DNA from: Patescibacteria group bacterium
Lineage (GTDB): Bacteria > Patescibacteriota > JAHJAL01
Assembly: GCA_049322675.1 (NCBI GenBank)
Contig: JBMORM010000025.1
Location: 128,520 to 192,519, forward strand
Length of the DNA: 64,000 nt
Direction: 5' to 3'
Shown here: positions 5,341-62,992 of the stretch, piece after piece
Position numbering within the stretch: position 1 is the first letter of the stretch
How the letters are laid out: every line of letters starts with the position of its first letter
The notes under the pieces: model-generated
Told to the model about the DNA's origin: nothing
The model's input: only the letters and a program-made list of their open reading frames with translations
The model's database searches: none
Made by a program: the position numbers and the translations under genes

Positions 5341-5480
5341 TGAGAAAAATTTTCAATTTTCAATTTTCAGTTTTTCCCTCACGGGATCGAACTGCTGCTG
5401 ACAAACATATTTTGTATGCGATATTTGAAAATTGGAAATTGAAAATTTATTGGAAATTGAAAATTGGAAATTGAAAATTT
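5341..5480. repeat. Inverted-repeat element, heptamer-repeat family, with a GC-rich core
   Basis: Arms ttttcaattttcaattttcag and (gaaaattggaaattgaaaatt)x2 flank the core ccctcacgggatcgaactgctgctgac. Confidence 0.65.
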
Positions 5481-8472
5481 TGTAAACGAATATAACAGAT
5501 TGAATCCTCGCCAAAAAGAGGCTGTTGATACTATTTATGGCCCCGTGATGGTAATTGCCGGTCCGGGGACGGGGAAGACGCAGACTTTGACGGTGAGGAT
5601 TGCCAATATTTTACAAAAGACGGATAGTATGCCGTCTAGTATTTTGTGCCTGACTTTTACCAATTCAGGTGTTAAGGCAATGCGGGAACGTTTGGTAAAA
5701 ATAATTGGTCCTGACGCCTATCGGATCGATATTCACACCTTCCATTCTTTTTGCAACGAGGTGATAACTTTTCATCCCGAGCGTTTTTTGTTTGCCAAAA
5801 AAATGCAGCAGATCACTGATTTGGAACAGATTCAATACGTGATGAAAATATTGAATGAAGGTGATTTTAAGTTATTGCGGCCACCCAAGGCGGCGGATTT
5901 TTATCTCAAAAGTATTATCAAGGCGATTGGTGATTTAAAGATGGAAGGTTTGACTCCTGAAGAGTATGAAAAAATTGTCCGGCAAAGACATCAAGAATAT
6001 GAAATATTTCTAGCGGAAAGAGAAAAGAAGCCGACGCAAAAAGATTTGTCGGAAAAAACTTCGATTGAAAGAAATCTGGAATTGTCAGATTTGTATCGCA
6101 AATATCAAGAGTTGATGCGGGAAAATGGTCGTTATGATTACAATGACATGATCTTGTTTGTTTTAAATGAGTTTAAAAAAGATATAAATTTTCTGGCGGG
6201 GTATCAGGAGAAATATTTATTTATTTTGGTGGACGAATATCAGGATACCAATGGGGCACAAAACGAGTTGATCAAATTGATGGGCGCCAAGGTGGATCAA
6301 CCGAATATTATGGTGGTGGGGGATGACGAGCAGTCGATTTACCGTTTCCAAGGCGCCAGTTTGGAAAACCTGTTATTTTTTACCGATTTGTTTCCCAAAA
6401 CAAAAAAAATTGTTTTGAATATAAATTATCGCAGTCCAAAAAATCTGGTGGCGGCTGCCAGATCGATGATTGTTCAAGCCGGGGTTAATGCTCAGCAAGT
6501 TTTGGCGATAGATAAAGAGATTGAGGCGGCAAACCAGAATGATGTGCCCGGGGCGTGGTTAGTAAAACTTGAGAGCGATGATTTGGAACAAAGTTGGATT
6601 ATGGAAAAAATAAAAAAATTATCGCAGAGCGGAGTAGATCTGTCGGATATTGCTTTGATTTTTCGAACCAATGACGAGATGGAAGATTATAAAAAGCTAT
6701 TTTTGGCAGCCGGCATTGACTGGCGATTTTTGACCGGAGCCAATATTTTGCAGGAGAAGATCATATCGCAGTTGGTTGATTTGATACGAGTGATTATCAA
6801 TCCTTTCAACGACGAGTTGTTGTTTAAGGTAATGTATTTTTCCTGGCTCAAAATAGATGAAGTGGATCATTATCGTTTATTAAGTTTTGGTCGCCGAAAA
6901 ATATTTGCTTGGCTAGTGGAAAACAAAGATGCTGATTTGACTGACAAGTTTAAAGATTGGCCTGGATTGGTAAAATTTGCCAATTTTGTTTTAATAATCA
7001 GAAAAGAAAATGCCAATCGGACTTTACCGGATGTTTTGGAAAAATTGATCAAACAAAGTGGTTTATTGAAATGGGTAGTGGAAGACAAAAAGAGAGTAGG
7101 GGATTTGCCAAAGTTAAAGAGCTTTTTCAAATTTGCCAAGTCGGCGGCCGCCAATCGGGTTGAATATGATTTAAGTGAGTTTATAAATACTTTGGCGGAC
7201 ATGAAAGATCATGATTTGCCGATTCGTTTCAACGAGATGGATTTTTCCAAGTCGGCAGTGGTTCTGACGACGGCTCATGGTAGCAAGGGCTTGGAGTTTG
7301 ATTATGTCTTTATTGTCAAAGCGGTGGACAAACATTGGAGCAACAAGACTGCGCGGGAATTAATAAAAATAGTGCCGGGAGTGATCAAAAAACAACCCGA
7401 AAAGACAGAAGCGGTGGATGAAGAAAGAAGACTATTTTACGTGGCTATGACGCGAGCCAAAAAAGAATTGTATATTACCTGGGCGAAAAAATATGGTCTG
7501 GGCAAAGATGAAAAAGAGACGATCGAATCAATGTTTGTGGCCGAAATAGATCAAAATTTTTCTCAGTCTGTCGATAGTGGATTGTCGGAGCAAAAAAATA
7601 AAGAATTGATTGCCGATTATTTTGACAAAAAGCCAGAGGCGGTTTTTTCAGTTGAATTGACTGATTATTTGCGACATTTGGTTGATGAATTTGTCCTCAG
7701 TCCTACTGCTTTGAATAAATATCTGGATTGTCCCAGAAAGTTTTTATACGAAAGTTTATTGCGGGTGCCGATGGCCAAGAAACTACCCTTGCAATACGGA
7801 TCGGCGATACATTACGCGTTGGAAATGTTTTACAGCGAGTATAAAAAGACTAAACAATTACCGGAAAAAGAGGTTTTGTTGCAATATTTTGAGGCGGGTT
7901 TAAATAAAGAAGTCTTAGCTGAGCATGACCTGAAACATCTTCGACAAAATGGCCGGGAAAATCTGGCAAAGTATTATGATTTTTATTGTGATAAATTCAA
8001 GATTCCGATTTACAATGAGTTCAATTTTGGCAGCAAAAAGATATTATTGGATCAGCAAATCCCGATCACGGGCAAGGTTGATCGGGTAGAGTTATTGGAG
8101 GATAGTGATGGTGAGACCGTGAGAGTGATTGATTATAAAACCGGACAACCCAAGAGTCGCAATGATATTTTGGGTAAAACCAAGACTTCGACTGGCGATT
8201 ATCACCGGCAGCTGATATTTTACAAGTTACTCGGGAGACTATCTTCCAGCTTTATTTACAAAATCAAAGAAGTGGAATTAGATTTTGTCGAACCCAAAAA
8301 AGGTTCGGGAAAATTTGTTCGAGAATCTTTTATGATCGAATTGGAACAGTTGAATCAATTAAAAAAAATGATTCGAGAAGTCTGGGTCAAAATTCAAGCT
8401 TTGCAATTTCCCTGCCTGCCTGAAAAAAATAAATGCAAAGATTGTGATTATCGCGATTTGTGTGATAAATAA
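5464..8472 (+). CDS. UvrD/PcrA-family helicase fused to a C-terminal PD-(D/E)xK (RecB/AddB/Cas4-like) nuclease with a 4-Cys cluster
   Basis: N-terminus LNPRQKEAV...VIAGPGTGKT (Walker A), DEYQDT (Walker B), helicase motif VI-like YVAMTRAKKELY. C-terminus YLDCPRKF ... CLPEKNKCKDCDYRDLC (four Cys, AddB/Cas4 type). The TTG start lies inside a repeat element. Confidence 0.7.
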   Translation: MEIENFVNEYNRLNPRQKEAVDTIYGPVMVIAGPGTGKTQTLTVRIANILQKTDSMPSSILCLTFTNSGVKAMRERLVKIIGPDAYRIDIHTFHSFCNEVITFHPERFLFAKKMQQITDLEQIQYVMKILNEGDFKLLRPPKAADFYLKSIIKAIGDLKMEGLTPEEYEKIVRQRHQEYEIFLAEREKKPTQKDLSEKTSIERNLELSDLYRKYQELMRENGRYDYNDMILFVLNEFKKDINFLAGYQEKYLFILVDEYQDTNGAQNELIKLMGAKVDQPNIMVVGDDEQSIYRFQGASLENLLFFTDLFPKTKKIVLNINYRSPKNLVAAARSMIVQAGVNAQQVLAIDKEIEAANQNDVPGAWLVKLESDDLEQSWIMEKIKKLSQSGVDLSDIALIFRTNDEMEDYKKLFLAAGIDWRFLTGANILQEKIISQLVDLIRVIINPFNDELLFKVMYFSWLKIDEVDHYRLLSFGRRKIFAWLVENKDADLTDKFKDWPGLVKFANFVLIIRKENANRTLPDVLEKLIKQSGLLKWVVEDKKRVGDLPKLKSFFKFAKSAAANRVEYDLSEFINTLADMKDHDLPIRFNEMDFSKSAVVLTTAHGSKGLEFDYVFIVKAVDKHWSNKTARELIKIVPGVIKKQPEKTEAVDEERRLFYVAMTRAKKELYITWAKKYGLGKDEKETIESMFVAEIDQNFSQSVDSGLSEQKNKELIADYFDKKPEAVFSVELTDYLRHLVDEFVLSPTALNKYLDCPRKFLYESLLRVPMAKKLPLQYGSAIHYALEMFYSEYKKTKQLPEKEVLLQYFEAGLNKEVLAEHDLKHLRQNGRENLAKYYDFYCDKFKIPIYNEFNFGSKKILLDQQIPITGKVDRVELLEDSDGETVRVIDYKTGQPKSRNDILGKTKTSTGDYHRQLIFYKLLGRLSSSFIYKIKEVELDFVEPKKGSGKFVRESFMIELEQLNQLKKMIREVWVKIQALQFPCLPEKNKCKDCDYRDLCDK

Positions 8473-8482
8473 TTGTCAATCG

Positions 8483-8543
8483 TAGGGGCGACCCTCGCGG
8501 TCGCCCGGTTTTCAATGTAGGGGCGAGGTTTCCCCGCCCCTAC
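8483..8543. repeat. Two adjacent GC-rich hairpin palindromes sharing a GTAGGGGCG arm
   Basis: GGGCGACC-ctcgc-GGTCGCCC, then GTAGGGGCG-aggtttccc-CGCCCCTAC. These are about 80% GC in a ~35% GC genome, immediately after the helicase-nuclease stop. Confidence 0.6.
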
Positions 8544-8674: not shown

Positions 8675-11074
8675 ATGACAAATAGTTTAGAAAAAAATGG
8701 CTTGGACAAAAAGGTTATTGATTCGCCGGTGGATAAAATGTCGGCGGAACAGATAAAAAAATTGCTTTTTCAGTATTCCCAGTCTTTGGATCCTAAAGAT
8801 CGGATTACTAAAAATCCGGTCGATATTATGTCGCCAAAAATGACTCAACAGTTAAAAGAAAGGTATGTAAAAATTGATAAACCAGTAGAGGCGCGGTCTC
8901 CGCGCCTGGAAATGGCAGAAAAGGCCGAATCTGTTTCGGAAACATTAACAATGGAATCAATCGAAAAGGATTGGATGCCATCTGATTTTGTAGGGGCTGA
9001 CTTTACGCCTGCTCAACCTGAATCCGCAGGGGCGGACCCATGTGTCCGCCAGAATGCCGAACCAAAAACCTGGAAATCCTGGTTCAAATCCGCGGGTGAA
9101 AAATTGAAAAATGCCGGCGAAAAGATCAAAAATTTCTTTTTGGTACCGGAAGAGGAAAAATTAACCGCTATCAAAAGAGAAGACGATAAAATCACTATTG
9201 ATTCCGGGTTGCAAGCTGAATTGAAAGATCAAATCAGAAAAGAAGGCCAAAAAGAACAGGAAAAATACGAAAAAAATAGTTGGGTGGTGCGTTATCCCTG
9301 GCTTAAAAATACTTTGCAAAAAGTAGAAGACATGAAAGCTTCTGTTGAGGGATTTACTGTTGGCGTCTTGATACCGGCCGTTTCTAGAATTGTTTTGCAT
9401 GATCCAATCTTGACTTCATTGGCTGGCGGAACAACCGGGATGTTTTTGAAGTTTAAGTTGAGTCAAAAGTTTGAAAGAGCTTATTATTCAGTCGAACAAG
9501 TTAATGCGGTCGTGGAGGAAAAATTAAAGAATATCGATATTTTGTCGGTAGCGGCTTGCGCGGCTTTTTTGGATAAACTTGCCAGTAAGAATAAAATTTT
9601 AGCCGACAAGTCCGATATGCAATATTTTATTCAGTTAAGAAATGGGATAAATAACCGTTTGATCGATCTGCTGGCCAAAGCGGATAGCCGCGATGAATCC
9701 TGTGGTATCTGGGTTTTTCAAGATAAGCAGGGAAATAAAGTTATTCGTTCTCGGGTTGATATTAGCAGATTACTGGAAAAAGATGTTCAGGGGATGATGT
9801 TTGCCATGAATGCCGATGATCGTGCCAGATTTGAGAAAAGGTATTCTCAAGGCTTGTTGGCTGGTGTTTTGGGTAATCTGGCGACTGCGGTTTGGGGCTG
9901 TTCTCCTCACGACCAGGATCATCCTGGTAGCAAAAAAGATGATACCGACAATCATTTGCATCAAAGCAAACCGACCAAAATACCCAAGCCGGAAGATATG
10001 GAGCTAGACAAACATCGGATTATCAAACCAACTGCGGACTCAATTTTTGATCGTCACGATCATCCGTTTGATCTACAGGAAAAAATCAATACTGAATCTA
10101 CTCGTGTTGTGGCTCAAAATACGGTAAATGATTCTGTTGCTCCTGCACCGACTCCGACCGAGAATACCGGTTCGGGTAATCATGTTTATACGACTACCGA
10201 TGAAAATGGACATACCACTTATCATAGTGAAGGCGGATATTATAAATTGGAAGAAACTGACCCCAATGCCAACACGTATCGTTTGAAAGATAATGATCCG
10301 AATGCCAATCAGTATCATCTTGATTCAAAGCAGGACAGTGAGATTCAAGCTGGTTATCACCCCTTTGAAGCCACTCCAGATCATATAAAACATGATTCTT
10401 TCGGTGGCGGTGACAATAATCAACCGGGTATGGGCGGGGTCAATAAAGATCAAGATACTGTTTATGGTAATACAGAGTCAGATCAACCTACTTCCGATCA
10501 AAAACCGGTGTTACATCATAGCACTGAAGGCAAGAAGAATTTTGATGAATTTTTAAATGAGAAATCGGAATACAATGGATCAATAAAACCAGTTGTTAAT
10601 GAAAAACCGATCGATGCCAGCAAATTGTTTCATACTGAAAAGGGCTTGAAAAATTTTCAGGAAAATTGGGGCAGTCATTCTGAGCCCGTCAACAATCCTT
10701 CTTCGACTTCGACCACTCCGGCTCCGGAAAAGCTGGAAGATTATCAACCTTTGACTCCGGCGACACCGGTCAAGACTGAATCTTTAGATGGTTATCAAAA
10801 TTTGAACACTGATGTTCATTCCAATCCGGTAAAAGGAAGTGAAAATATCAATGAGTATCAATGGCTAAATGGTGAAAAACCATCTGGTACGGAAAAATTG
10901 GAAGATTATATTCCTTTAAACCAGAGTAATACTCAAAAGCTGGATGATTTGACTGGTTATACGCCTTTAAATCAGCCGGTCAATCAGGAAGATGTTAATT
11001 CATATGCTCCCTTGAATGGCAGTCCGGTGCCTCAGATCCAACCCGAGAGTTTGGACGGATATCAAAAGTTGTAA
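8675..11074 (+). CDS. Hypothetical 799-aa protein: ~430-aa globular N-terminal region plus a long low-complexity tail with 7 YxxLN-type motif repeats
   Basis: ATG at 8675. The tail carries repeats LEDYQPL, LDGYQNLN, INEYQWLN, LEDYIPLN, LTGYTPLN, VNSYAPLN, LDGYQKL. No recognisable catalytic motif. Confidence 0.45.
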   Translation: MTNSLEKNGLDKKVIDSPVDKMSAEQIKKLLFQYSQSLDPKDRITKNPVDIMSPKMTQQLKERYVKIDKPVEARSPRLEMAEKAESVSETLTMESIEKDWMPSDFVGADFTPAQPESAGADPCVRQNAEPKTWKSWFKSAGEKLKNAGEKIKNFFLVPEEEKLTAIKREDDKITIDSGLQAELKDQIRKEGQKEQEKYEKNSWVVRYPWLKNTLQKVEDMKASVEGFTVGVLIPAVSRIVLHDPILTSLAGGTTGMFLKFKLSQKFERAYYSVEQVNAVVEEKLKNIDILSVAACAAFLDKLASKNKILADKSDMQYFIQLRNGINNRLIDLLAKADSRDESCGIWVFQDKQGNKVIRSRVDISRLLEKDVQGMMFAMNADDRARFEKRYSQGLLAGVLGNLATAVWGCSPHDQDHPGSKKDDTDNHLHQSKPTKIPKPEDMELDKHRIIKPTADSIFDRHDHPFDLQEKINTESTRVVAQNTVNDSVAPAPTPTENTGSGNHVYTTTDENGHTTYHSEGGYYKLEETDPNANTYRLKDNDPNANQYHLDSKQDSEIQAGYHPFEATPDHIKHDSFGGGDNNQPGMGGVNKDQDTVYGNTESDQPTSDQKPVLHHSTEGKKNFDEFLNEKSEYNGSIKPVVNEKPIDASKLFHTEKGLKNFQENWGSHSEPVNNPSSTSTTPAPEKLEDYQPLTPATPVKTESLDGYQNLNTDVHSNPVKGSENINEYQWLNGEKPSGTEKLEDYIPLNQSNTQKLDDLTGYTPLNQPVNQEDVNSYAPLNGSPVPQIQPESLDGYQKL

Positions 11075-14905: not shown

Positions 14906-14937
14906 AGAATTGTTGATTGGATATTAATATTTTTTTT

Positions 14938-15156
14938 ATGACTTATCGTTTTACAACTATTATTACCAAAGAAGGCAAATGGTATGTGGCGCGCTGTTTG
15001 GAGCTGGAAGTGGTTAGTCAGGGGAAGACGGTGGAAGAGTCGCAGAAGAATCTGAAGGAAGCGGTGGAGCTGTTTTTGGAGGATCAACCGAATCCCCGGA
15101 AATTTGCTACAAAATCTTATCCAATTGTGACTACGTTGGAATTGAATCATGCCTAA
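14938..15156 (+). CDS. hicB: HicB-family antitoxin (UPF0150)
   Basis: YVARCLELEVVSQGKTVEESQKNLKEAVELFLE is the typical HicB N-terminal RNase H-like fold signature. The track start is TTG at 14917; ATG is at 14938. It overlaps hicA by 8 nt. Confidence 0.7.
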   Translation: MTYRFTTIITKEGKWYVARCLELEVVSQGKTVEESQKNLKEAVELFLEDQPNPRKFATKSYPIVTTLELNHA

Positions 15157-15373
15157 AACTATTTCGGGAAAAAAATTGGTGCGGATTTTATGTCGTTATT
15201 GGGGTTTTGTTTCGGTTTCGCAAAGAGGCAGTCATATAAAATTGAAGTTTTGCGATAAAAACAAAGATATTGTTGTGATTGTGCCTTTGCATTCGGAATT
15301 GGCGCGGGGAACTTTGAAGGGGATTTTAAAGCAGGCTCGGATTGGTGAAAAAGAGATTAGGGGGTATTTTTGA
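15149..15373 (+). CDS. hicA: HicA-family mRNA interferase toxin
   Basis: GKKLVRILCRYWGF...QRGSHIKL...LKGILKQA matches the HicA/YcfA dsRBD-like consensus (SGKELIKLLEKNGW..RQKGSHH...GTLRSILKQAGL). Confidence 0.75.
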   Translation: MPKTISGKKLVRILCRYWGFVSVSQRGSHIKLKFCDKNKDIVVIVPLHSELARGTLKGILKQARIGEKEIRGYF

Positions 15374-15432: not shown

Positions 15433-15500
15433 GTGTTGGGCTACCGTAATGGTCGCCCTTACTGATGGGGTGGATGCATGGTCATGTGTTGTTTTGTATC

Positions 15501-15528
15501 GTAGGGGCGGTTCATGAACCGCCCCTAC
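15501..15528. repeat. Perfect 28-nt GC-rich palindrome GTAGGGGCGGTTCATGAACCGCCCCTAC
   Basis: It shares the GTAGGGGCG/CGCCCCTAC arms with the elements at 8483-8543. Confidence 0.7.
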
Positions 15529-15607
15529 AAAAAATGATCATATAATCTTGATATTTTCTTAATTTTATTTTATAATATTAGGATATTTTTATTTTTAGTG
15601 AGTACAT

Positions 15608-62595: not shown

Positions 62596-62677
62596 TGGGC
62601 GAGAGAGGAATCGAACCTCCATGGATTGCTCCACATGCTCCTAAGGCATGCGCGTCTGCCAGTTTCGCCACTCGCCC
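62596..62677 (-). tRNA. tRNA-Leu (anticodon UAG), type II with long variable arm
   Basis: Folded by hand. Acceptor GGGCGAG/CTCGCCC; 3-bp D stem; anticodon stem CATGC/GCATG with loop CTTAGGA (U33, UAG, G37); variable hairpin TGGA-gcaa-TCCA; T arm GGAGG-TTCGATT-CCTCT; discriminator A. No encoded CCA. Confidence 0.85.
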
Positions 62678-62992
62678 GCGTCGGAACCGATCCTATCGTT
62701 ACATGAAAGCCAAAAACTTTTCGGACGGGCAGGTCGCGACCTGCACCTACGGTTAGGATCGGTTCTTCCTCTACAAAAAAATTTCTGCGACAATTTTTTT
62801 GTTATCAACTACATTAAATATACGATTCTGCCGTTGTTTGTATGCCAAAAAATATTGGAAGATGGGATCTTGTATTTTTAAGCTGGTTGGGGTATAATGG
62901 TTTGATTTGAAATATTTTGGGGTAGTTATGGAAAAAATATCCCAAGCAAGAGATATTTATATATTACCAGAAATAAATAAAAAAATAAAAAT

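Follow-up and report, generated by a model that had tools for sequence, protein, structure and literature searches.

Introduction

The described systems closest to the palindromes reported here are the REPs associated with TnpA-REP subclass 2.4, for which Quentin et al. (2018, PMC6006769) distinguished canonical long REPs, whose stem has a base of three G-C pairs, and "double foot" REPs. In the same work, subclass 2.4 REPs were also found inserted in frame in the tnpA-REP gene, between the regions encoding HuH and Y, and the subclass was abundant in Cyanobacteria and Bacteroidetes and scattered elsewhere. As cross-referenced in PMC6006769, TnpA-REP subclass 2.4 corresponds to group 4 of the REP-associated tyrosine transposases (RAYTs) of Bertels et al. 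(2017). For RAYT groups 2 and 3, the transposase recognises the folded single strand together with GTAG, is strand-specific and cleaves adjacent to the hairpin (PMC8266576). Classic REP families are described as having more than 100 copies per genome (PMC2817692).

The DNA analysed in this study is a stretch of 64 kb, hereafter called the window, from a Patescibacteria (CPR) MAG. Its palindromes share with subclass 2.4 the presence of both REP forms, the in-frame location of REPs inside genes and a patchy, cross-phylum spread, and the very 28-mer of the window occurs in other genomes inside a RAYT gene between HuH and Y. Unlike the hosts of subclass 2.4 in PMC6006769, the host here belongs to the Patescibacteria; unlike the described REP/RAYT pairs, no RAYT was found in the 74 kb of this strain that were covered; and the inner stems within the one lineage of the window are notably diverse.

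Similarities to other systems were also observed. The elements resemble the GTAG-tagged REP superfamily (Di Nocera et al. 2013, PMC3733652) in carrying GTAG at one end of a GC-rich palindrome of 20-40 bp, in lying mostly downstream of coding regions, in occurring as singletons and head-to-tail pairs, and in being located inside genes in some cases. In that superfamily, however, the GTAG tag is unpaired, while in the present elements it frequently pairs with CTAC (double foot), and head-to-tail dimers like the first two copies described below are rare there. GTAGGG, CCCTAC and GTAGGGGC do not appear in the main text of PMC3733652, where the family consensus sequences are placed in a figure. By analogy with the REPtrons of E. 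coli, S. maltophilia and Marinomonas (Messing 2012, PMC3479197; Corneloup 2021, PMC8266576), a strand-specific Y1 HUH enzyme recognising a folded single-stranded hairpin with GTAG would be expected here. The palindromes are perfect, as in group 3 REPs, but those REPtrons belong to RAYT groups 2 and 3 and to Proteobacteria, and the E. coli REPs have a bulged, imperfect stem unlike that of the elements described here. The subterminal hairpins of IS200/IS605 are likewise recognised as single-stranded hairpins by a Y1 HUH transposase with a 5' guide tetranucleotide, while the elements here are only 25-28 nt long and have no transposase between them.

Hairpins and REP copies in the window

Three intergenic hairpins stand out in the window, which has a GC content of 36.1%. 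Copy 1 (8482..8506, + strand) is of the canonical long form, with a GTAG foot, an 8-bp stem (GGGCGACC/GGTCGCCC) whose base consists of three G-C pairs, and the loop CTCGC; GGTTTTC follows the hairpin. The copy starts 10 nt past the stop codon of a gene encoding a UvrD/PD-(D/E)XK helicase-nuclease (5464-8472). Copy 2 (8517..8543, without strand) is a double foot REP of 27 nt (GTAGGGGCGAGG TTT CCCCGCCCCTAC), which reads GTAGGGGCG AGGTTTCCC CGCCCCTAC when its arms are marked and whose stem reaches 11 pairs with one A/C mismatch; it starts 45 nt after the same stop codon, and the pair is 10 nt apart. Copy 3 (15501..15528, without strand) is a double foot REP forming a perfect 28-nt palindrome (GTAGGGGCGGTTCATGAACCGCCCCTAC), located 128 nt past the stop codon of hicA (HicA, 15149-15373, preceded by a weak HicB-like ORF, 14917-15156) and 20 nt ahead of a strong promoter-like site (15548-15576). 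The feet of copies 2 and 3 are GTAGGGG...CCCCTAC.

Two further intergenic copies are on the minus strand. The first (15438..15462) is a decayed canonical REP, GTAaGGGCGACC ATTAC GGTaGCCC, which equals the core of copy 1 with two substitutions. The second (62729..62750) is of the canonical type, GTAG GT GCAGGTCG CGACCTGC (GTAGGT-GCAGGTCGCGACCTGC), and is found about 50 nt upstream of a tRNA-Leu (62596-62677, minus strand), the only Rfam match at the gathering threshold in the whole window. A same-strain short-read (Logan) contig, whose positions 1-68 correspond to about 62729-62797 of the window, stops about 47 nt beyond this REP, and the repeat near tRNA-Leu may be the cause of the assembly break.

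Together with the copies inside an ORF described in the next section, the window contains five intact and three degenerate REPs, at three places in 64 kb, and no further copy was found in the additional 10 kb upstream of the window. Both REP forms are present: copy 1 and the copy at 62.7 kb (minus strand) are canonical long, and copies 2 and 3 are double foot. The stem is immediately preceded by GTAG in five copies (8482, 8517, 8885, 15501 and 62729, the last on the minus strand), and the foot is degenerate at 9026 (GCAG) and at 15462 (GTAA, minus strand). When the window was scanned for GC-rich hairpins of any kind, REP elements made up the majority. The exact 9-mer GTAGGGGCG occurs five times, and with at most one mismatch it gave 14 matches compared with 3.35 +/- 1.86 in shuffled sequences (0/100 shuffles reached 14). 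Folded as single-stranded DNA, copy 1 gave -10.4 kcal/mol (z-score -2.7), copy 2 -12.4 kcal/mol (-5.4) and copy 3 -14.7 kcal/mol (-7.6), and the decayed copy at 15438-15462 gave -6.8 kcal/mol.

These results bear out, with minor corrections, a preliminary description, which had reported three hairpins with a common 9-nt arm in two distant intergenic regions, downstream of the helicase-nuclease gene and of hicBA, two of the three lacking a T-run. The places and the gene context were right apart from the start of the first hairpin, whose GTAG begins at 8482 and not at 8483; the recurrence of the arm is confirmed by its enrichment over shuffled sequences; and copy 1 is indeed the only one of the three that has a T-run and scores as terminator-like. 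The GC content of about 80% given there applies to the arms and to copy 1, and the whole copies 2 and 3 have 70% and 64% GC. The number of copies was too low, since the five at 62729-62750 (-), 15438-15462 (-), 8885-8907, about 8990 and 9026-9050 have to be added.

The inner stems in the lineage of the window comprise at least six cores and are unusually diverse; this core diversity within one lineage is more like the diversity seen across phyla than like that of a single homogeneous family.

The 10-mer AGAGTAGGGG, which has GTAGGGG in common with the REP foot, was observed at six exact sites in the window (7093 and 16535 on the plus strand; 37727, 43639, 51515 and 61913 on the minus strand), and with at most one mismatch it gave seven matches compared with 1.6 expected (0/100 shuffles reached 7). 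It is on the sense strand of the host gene at five of the six sites, and at the remaining, intergenic site (51515) it has the orientation of the gene downstream. Four of the six sites read R-V-G-E/D in frame in unrelated ORFs, and the 10-mer forms no hairpin. No link was found between it and the REP foot.

REP copies in frame inside the 799-aa ORF

An ORF of 799 aa (8675-11074) follows copy 2 and contains three REP copies in frame on the plus strand. The first (8885..8907) is intact, GTAG AGGCGCGG TCT CCGCGCCT. The second is a degenerate remnant (8990..9012, the end coordinate being approximate) that reads V-G-A in frame (GTAGGGGCTGACTTTACGCCTGC), and the relative L123 has GTAGAGGCGGGGTTTCCCCGCCC at its position. 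The third (9026..9050) has the mutated foot GCAG, GCAGG GGCGGAC CCATGT GTCCGCC, and its core is intergenic in L123 (2891-2916). The ORF is uninterrupted despite the REPs and is 84% identical to its homologue of 831 aa in L123, while residues of about 106-130, the REP-derived stretch, are wholly different between the two. Pfam gave no match for the 799-aa ORF. When its first 275 residues were used to search for homologues at 1e-10, no protein was returned, not even its own, despite the existence of the L123 homologue.

Comparison with related strains

Eight syntenic contigs from relatives were retrieved with the exact HicA sequence, and copy 3 was identical in all eight. For the spacer downstream of the helicase-nuclease gene, the window was compared with one relative, L123 (GCA_036794765.1), whose flanks are 85-95% identical. 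At the site of copy 1, directly after ...GTCAATC, L123 has GTAGGGGCATGCCATGGCATGCCCCTAC, followed by about 790 bp that are absent from the window (L123 2131-2836; window 8507-8516) and are bounded by REP feet. This segment contains two small ORFs, one of 107 aa on the minus strand (2140-2463) and one of 69 aa on the plus strand (2621-2830), neither of which matched a Pfam or NCBIfam family. The segment may be a small cassette gained or lost via REP-REP recombination.

On the 3' side of the segment, L123 has three REPs, the last two of which align with copies 1 and 2 of the window. The aligned REPs have the same foot, the same spacer g(g)ttttxaat and the same right flank, yet their inner stems are different while remaining self-complementary. 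In addition, the same cores recur at other sites: core GGACCCATGTGTCC is intergenic in L123 and inside the ORF in the window; core GGGGTTTCCCC is found both in the intergenic region and inside the ORF of L123, and in copy 2 of the window with one mismatch; and core CAGGTCGCGACCTG, located inside the ORF in L123, reappears in the window at 62.7 kb. With different cores at homologous sites, an indel bounded by REP feet and cores recurring at other sites, the difference between the window and L123 is turnover and not simple drift by point mutation.

Association with RAYT genes in other genomes

The palindrome was found inside genes encoding RAYTs. In contigs from Salinibacteraceae (L016) and Calditrichaceae (L101), the 28-mer lies in frame in an ORF, between the HUH motif (MPNHIHG and MPNHLHG, respectively) and the Tyr motif. 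Both ORFs match the NCBIfam model NF047646 "REP-associated tyrosine transposase" with E values of 5e-16 and 3e-15, below the curated cut-off, and have a weak match to Pfam Y1_Tnp. In L016 the variant TATTGCAATA is present as identical copies in the gene, 26 nt upstream of the gene and 1.8 kb away.

A search for RAYT homologues gave 3,710 proteins, many of which are named RayT by JGI. A simple pattern found the translated palindrome GTAGGGGC...GCCCCTAC just past HUH in 72 of the best 120 of the 3,710, and on inspection most of the other proteins among the best 120 have related forms of the palindrome. Either open frame is used in the RAYTs (RRGVLQYAPT, VGAQHAAPL, VGATGRSPL), at times in tandem; no paper on the peptide VLQYAPT was found in the literature.

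The exact 28-mer of the window is present in 74 metagenome contigs with GC contents of 32-70%, none of which is otherwise similar to the window. Seven of the 74 contain a RAYT gene, with the 28-mer inside the gene in six (L143, L166, L204, L195, L162 and L181), where it reads VGAVHEPPL, and in the 3' flank in the seventh (L177). A REP-RAYT-REP layout was observed in L195 and L162. The RAYT in L204 (9789-10304, P0133), a Y1 HUH protein with an in-gene REP, is 100% identical to KKQ13964.1 from Candidatus Moranbacteria. Close homologues of KKQ13964.1 are found in MAGs of Patescibacteria, Kuenenbacteria and Gracilibacteria, some of them named "REP-associated tyrosine transposase" by NCBI, and in six samples one such RAYT follows a Mur ligase gene at an unchanged position. 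The RAYTs P0135 and P0245, which also contain VGAVHEPPL, come from samples unrelated to the lineage of the window.

The NCBI name of KKQ13964.1 is "CRISPR-associated integrase", which is likely a misannotation. It was also observed that the 28-mer is identical at the DNA level in the RAYT genes of L162, L204, L195, L181 and others, while the proteins are roughly half identical as judged by eye; on that estimate the embedded REP is better conserved than its host gene.

With an HMM built from 120 subclass 2.4-like proteins, neither the window and the 10 kb preceding it nor the related contigs (L122-L132) yielded a RAYT gene. For the window, Pfam on nine small ORFs gave no RAYT, and phmmer with approximate RayT and IS608 queries, serving as a probe only, gave none either. 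A literature search combining RAYT and Patescibacteria returned only spurious matches.

Distribution in reference genomes

The pattern GTAGGGGCG-N(0-20)-CGCCCCTAC was found at no fewer than 120 loci in a set of species-representative genomes from many phyla; the matches listed include Chloroflexota, Cyanobacteria, Bacteroidota, Desulfobacterota, Omnitrophota, Clostridia, Acidobacteriota and two CPR genomes. Among the 126 matches listed for these loci, 88 are exactly 28 nt long and 23 are 29 nt long, the stem is extended by at least three more pairs in 113, and 65 of the 88 28-mers are perfect palindromes. Identical 28-mers are common to unrelated phyla among the matches listed, which are mostly intergenic, with neighbouring genes that are convergent in 34 cases, in tandem in 37 and divergent in nine, and the TAG within the foot is often the stop codon of the neighbouring gene. 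No associated gene family was found by Pfam on 284 neighbouring ORFs of the 120 listed loci, which gave scattered housekeeping families. Y1_Tnp matched two of the 284. One of these, the tnpA in L065, was judged a coincidental neighbour, being an ordinary IS200 located 450 nt from the palindrome with its own, different hairpins; the other was taken to be the truncated RAYT ORF of L101.

In a MAG of candidate division FCPU426 (L115, 1292-5516), four different 28-nt double foot REPs were observed within 4.2 kb (GTAGAGGCGCGATTAATCGCGCCTCTAC, GTAGGGGCGCGATTAATCGCGCCCCTAC, GTAGGGGCGTATTGCAATACGCCCCTAC and GTAGGGAACGGTCGCGACCGTTCCCTAC), and thus one genome is able to hold several cores, like the lineage of the window. 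A literature search for the 9-mer GTAGGGGCG gave only primer and promoter sequences from unrelated work.

Identity of the elements and alternative explanations

The elements are very probably REPs of the class associated with RAYT group 4, or TnpA-REP subclass 2.4. This assignment is made because the GTAG foot at the base of the stem, the GGG/CCC bottom of the stem and the double feet of some copies match the description in PMC6006769. The hairpins have 5' GT[AG]G at the foot; their stems have three G-C base pairs or GT[AG]G...C[TC]AC at both ends; the same REP is found elsewhere flanking or inside a RAYT gene; and turnover is seen between strains. Arguing against the assignment are the lack of a RAYT gene in the 74 kb covered and in the related contigs, the modest density of copies compared with classic REP families, and the diversity of the inner stems. 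The REP/RAYT system, including REPs within the RAYT gene, is already published, and the elements here are a new member of it in a CPR genome. Of the two proposals in the preliminary description, a REP-like mobile palindrome or an operator for a dimeric DNA-binding protein, the former is thus supported by the foot and GC-rich stem, by the 28-mer in or beside RAYT genes elsewhere and by the strain differences at the same sites. Its expectation that copies would recur and be conserved in relatives also agrees with the additional copies and with the identity of copy 3 in the eight related contigs.

By analogy with the systems of E. coli, Stenotrophomonas and Marinomonas, whose chemistry is presumably the same, a Y1 HUH enzyme encoded once per genome would bind the folded single-stranded hairpin with its GTAG foot and would then cut and rejoin single-stranded DNA beside the hairpin, and such cutting and rejoining would spread, replace or recombine the REP copies. 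The copies in the window would be acted on by a putative RAYT of this genome.

Another reading, which we regard as improbable, is that the REPs are genuine but that the small CPR genome lost or never had a RAYT, the copies being immobile leftovers or having arrived with transferred DNA and persisting solely at positions where they do no harm or serve as 3'-end hairpins. The missing RAYT in 74 kb of the strain and in the related contigs, the decayed copies at 15438-15462, about 8990 and 9026 (GCAG foot), the low density of about five intact copies at three places in 74 kb with none in the extra 10 kb, and copy 3 remaining unchanged in eight related contigs are all consistent with such relics. 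However, between the window and L123 the inner stems at homologous sites differ wholesale yet are self-complementary and cores move, and an active exchange process or recombination is therefore needed instead of plain decay. Perfect 12-bp stems also persist in a genome of 36% GC, and RAYTs with the same 28-mer are common in other Patescibacteria, both of which count against relics.

Much less probable still is that the hairpins are ordinary transcription terminators or mRNA 3'-end stabilisers with no mobile origin, the shared arm being a habit of the lineage. Copy 1, with its T-run (GGTTTTC) 10 nt past a stop codon and its terminator-like score, would fit, as would the position of the palindromes elsewhere, mainly after the 3' ends of genes and between convergent genes. 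But hairpin and T-run are combined in copy 1 only, since neither strand of copies 2 and 3 has a T-run; the three copies in frame within the ORF cannot be terminators because of their location; and the GTAG foot is not needed for termination. The exact 28-mer occurs in genomes of 32-70% GC and inside RAYT genes, and this RAYT association refutes termination as the sole explanation. Copy 1 may nevertheless have a secondary role as a terminator of the helicase transcript or as a 3'-end stabiliser. The least credible reading is the second proposal of the preliminary description, an operator recognised in double-stranded form by a dimeric protein such as a repressor, or else an 11-6-11 site resembling Xer/dif. 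Copy 3 is formally 11-6-11 in its perfect 28-bp palindrome and ends 20 nt before the promoter-like site, but the copies of 25, 27 and 28 nt vary in inner sequence and retain only the potential to form a hairpin, so that neither fixed half-sites and spacing nor a single-locus or promoter position was found. Copy 1 is single-footed, copies 1 and 2 begin shortly past a stop codon (10 and 45 nt), and three more copies lie within an ORF. A dif site would be single-copy, whereas several copies per genome are present here, and identical sequences stand beside unrelated genes in many phyla. The operator proposal is not supported.

Three other candidates were also rejected. The copies are single or paired 10 nt apart, are unlike one another and form no array, in contrast to a CRISPR array or remnant; there are no terminal inverted repeats around a body, as in a MITE; and a sequencing adapter does not agree with a 28-mer in frame inside genes.

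Possible exchange of cores, annotation and strand of the foot

At homologous sites of the two strains, the GTAGGGGC foot and the flanks are retained, while the self-complementary cores differ and are drawn from a small shared repertoire, even inside the ORF. A speculative explanation, to which we give a low probability, is that REPs of this CPR lineage are exchanged at fixed sites by RAYT-catalysed, foot-guided cassette exchange, instead of moving simply by insertion and excision. A master copy for the exchange could be provided by the REP within the RAYT gene, and exchange inside the ORF would yield a hypervariable protein segment. The swapping of cores at fixed sites between strains and the identity of the 28-mer DNA across very different genomes are the only parts that go somewhat beyond the descriptions found.

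Subclass 2.4 REP/RAYT systems thus extend to the reduced genomes of Patescibacteria, in which REPs are markers of rearrangement between strains and of in-frame variation in a protein without an assigned function (the 799-aa ORF). For annotation, neither "operator" nor "small RNA" is an appropriate label for such hairpins, ORFs spanning them (peptides V-G-A... or R-G...A-P-T) are REP-derived, and homologues of the Moranbacteria "CRISPR-associated integrase" gene are RAYTs.

In the cluster at 8.4-9.1 kb, GTAG is on the plus strand in each of the four intact single-foot copies (window and L123 together), and the copy of the window at 62729 has it on the minus strand. GC skew in 2-kb windows ranges from +0.03 to +0.49, indicating that the plus strand is G-rich along the whole window and would therefore be the lagging-strand template. 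A GTAG strand on the lagging-strand template would fit a process that depends on single-stranded DNA, in a sample that is small. The GC skew is positive throughout, although gene orientation turns from mostly plus to mostly minus after about 36.7 kb.
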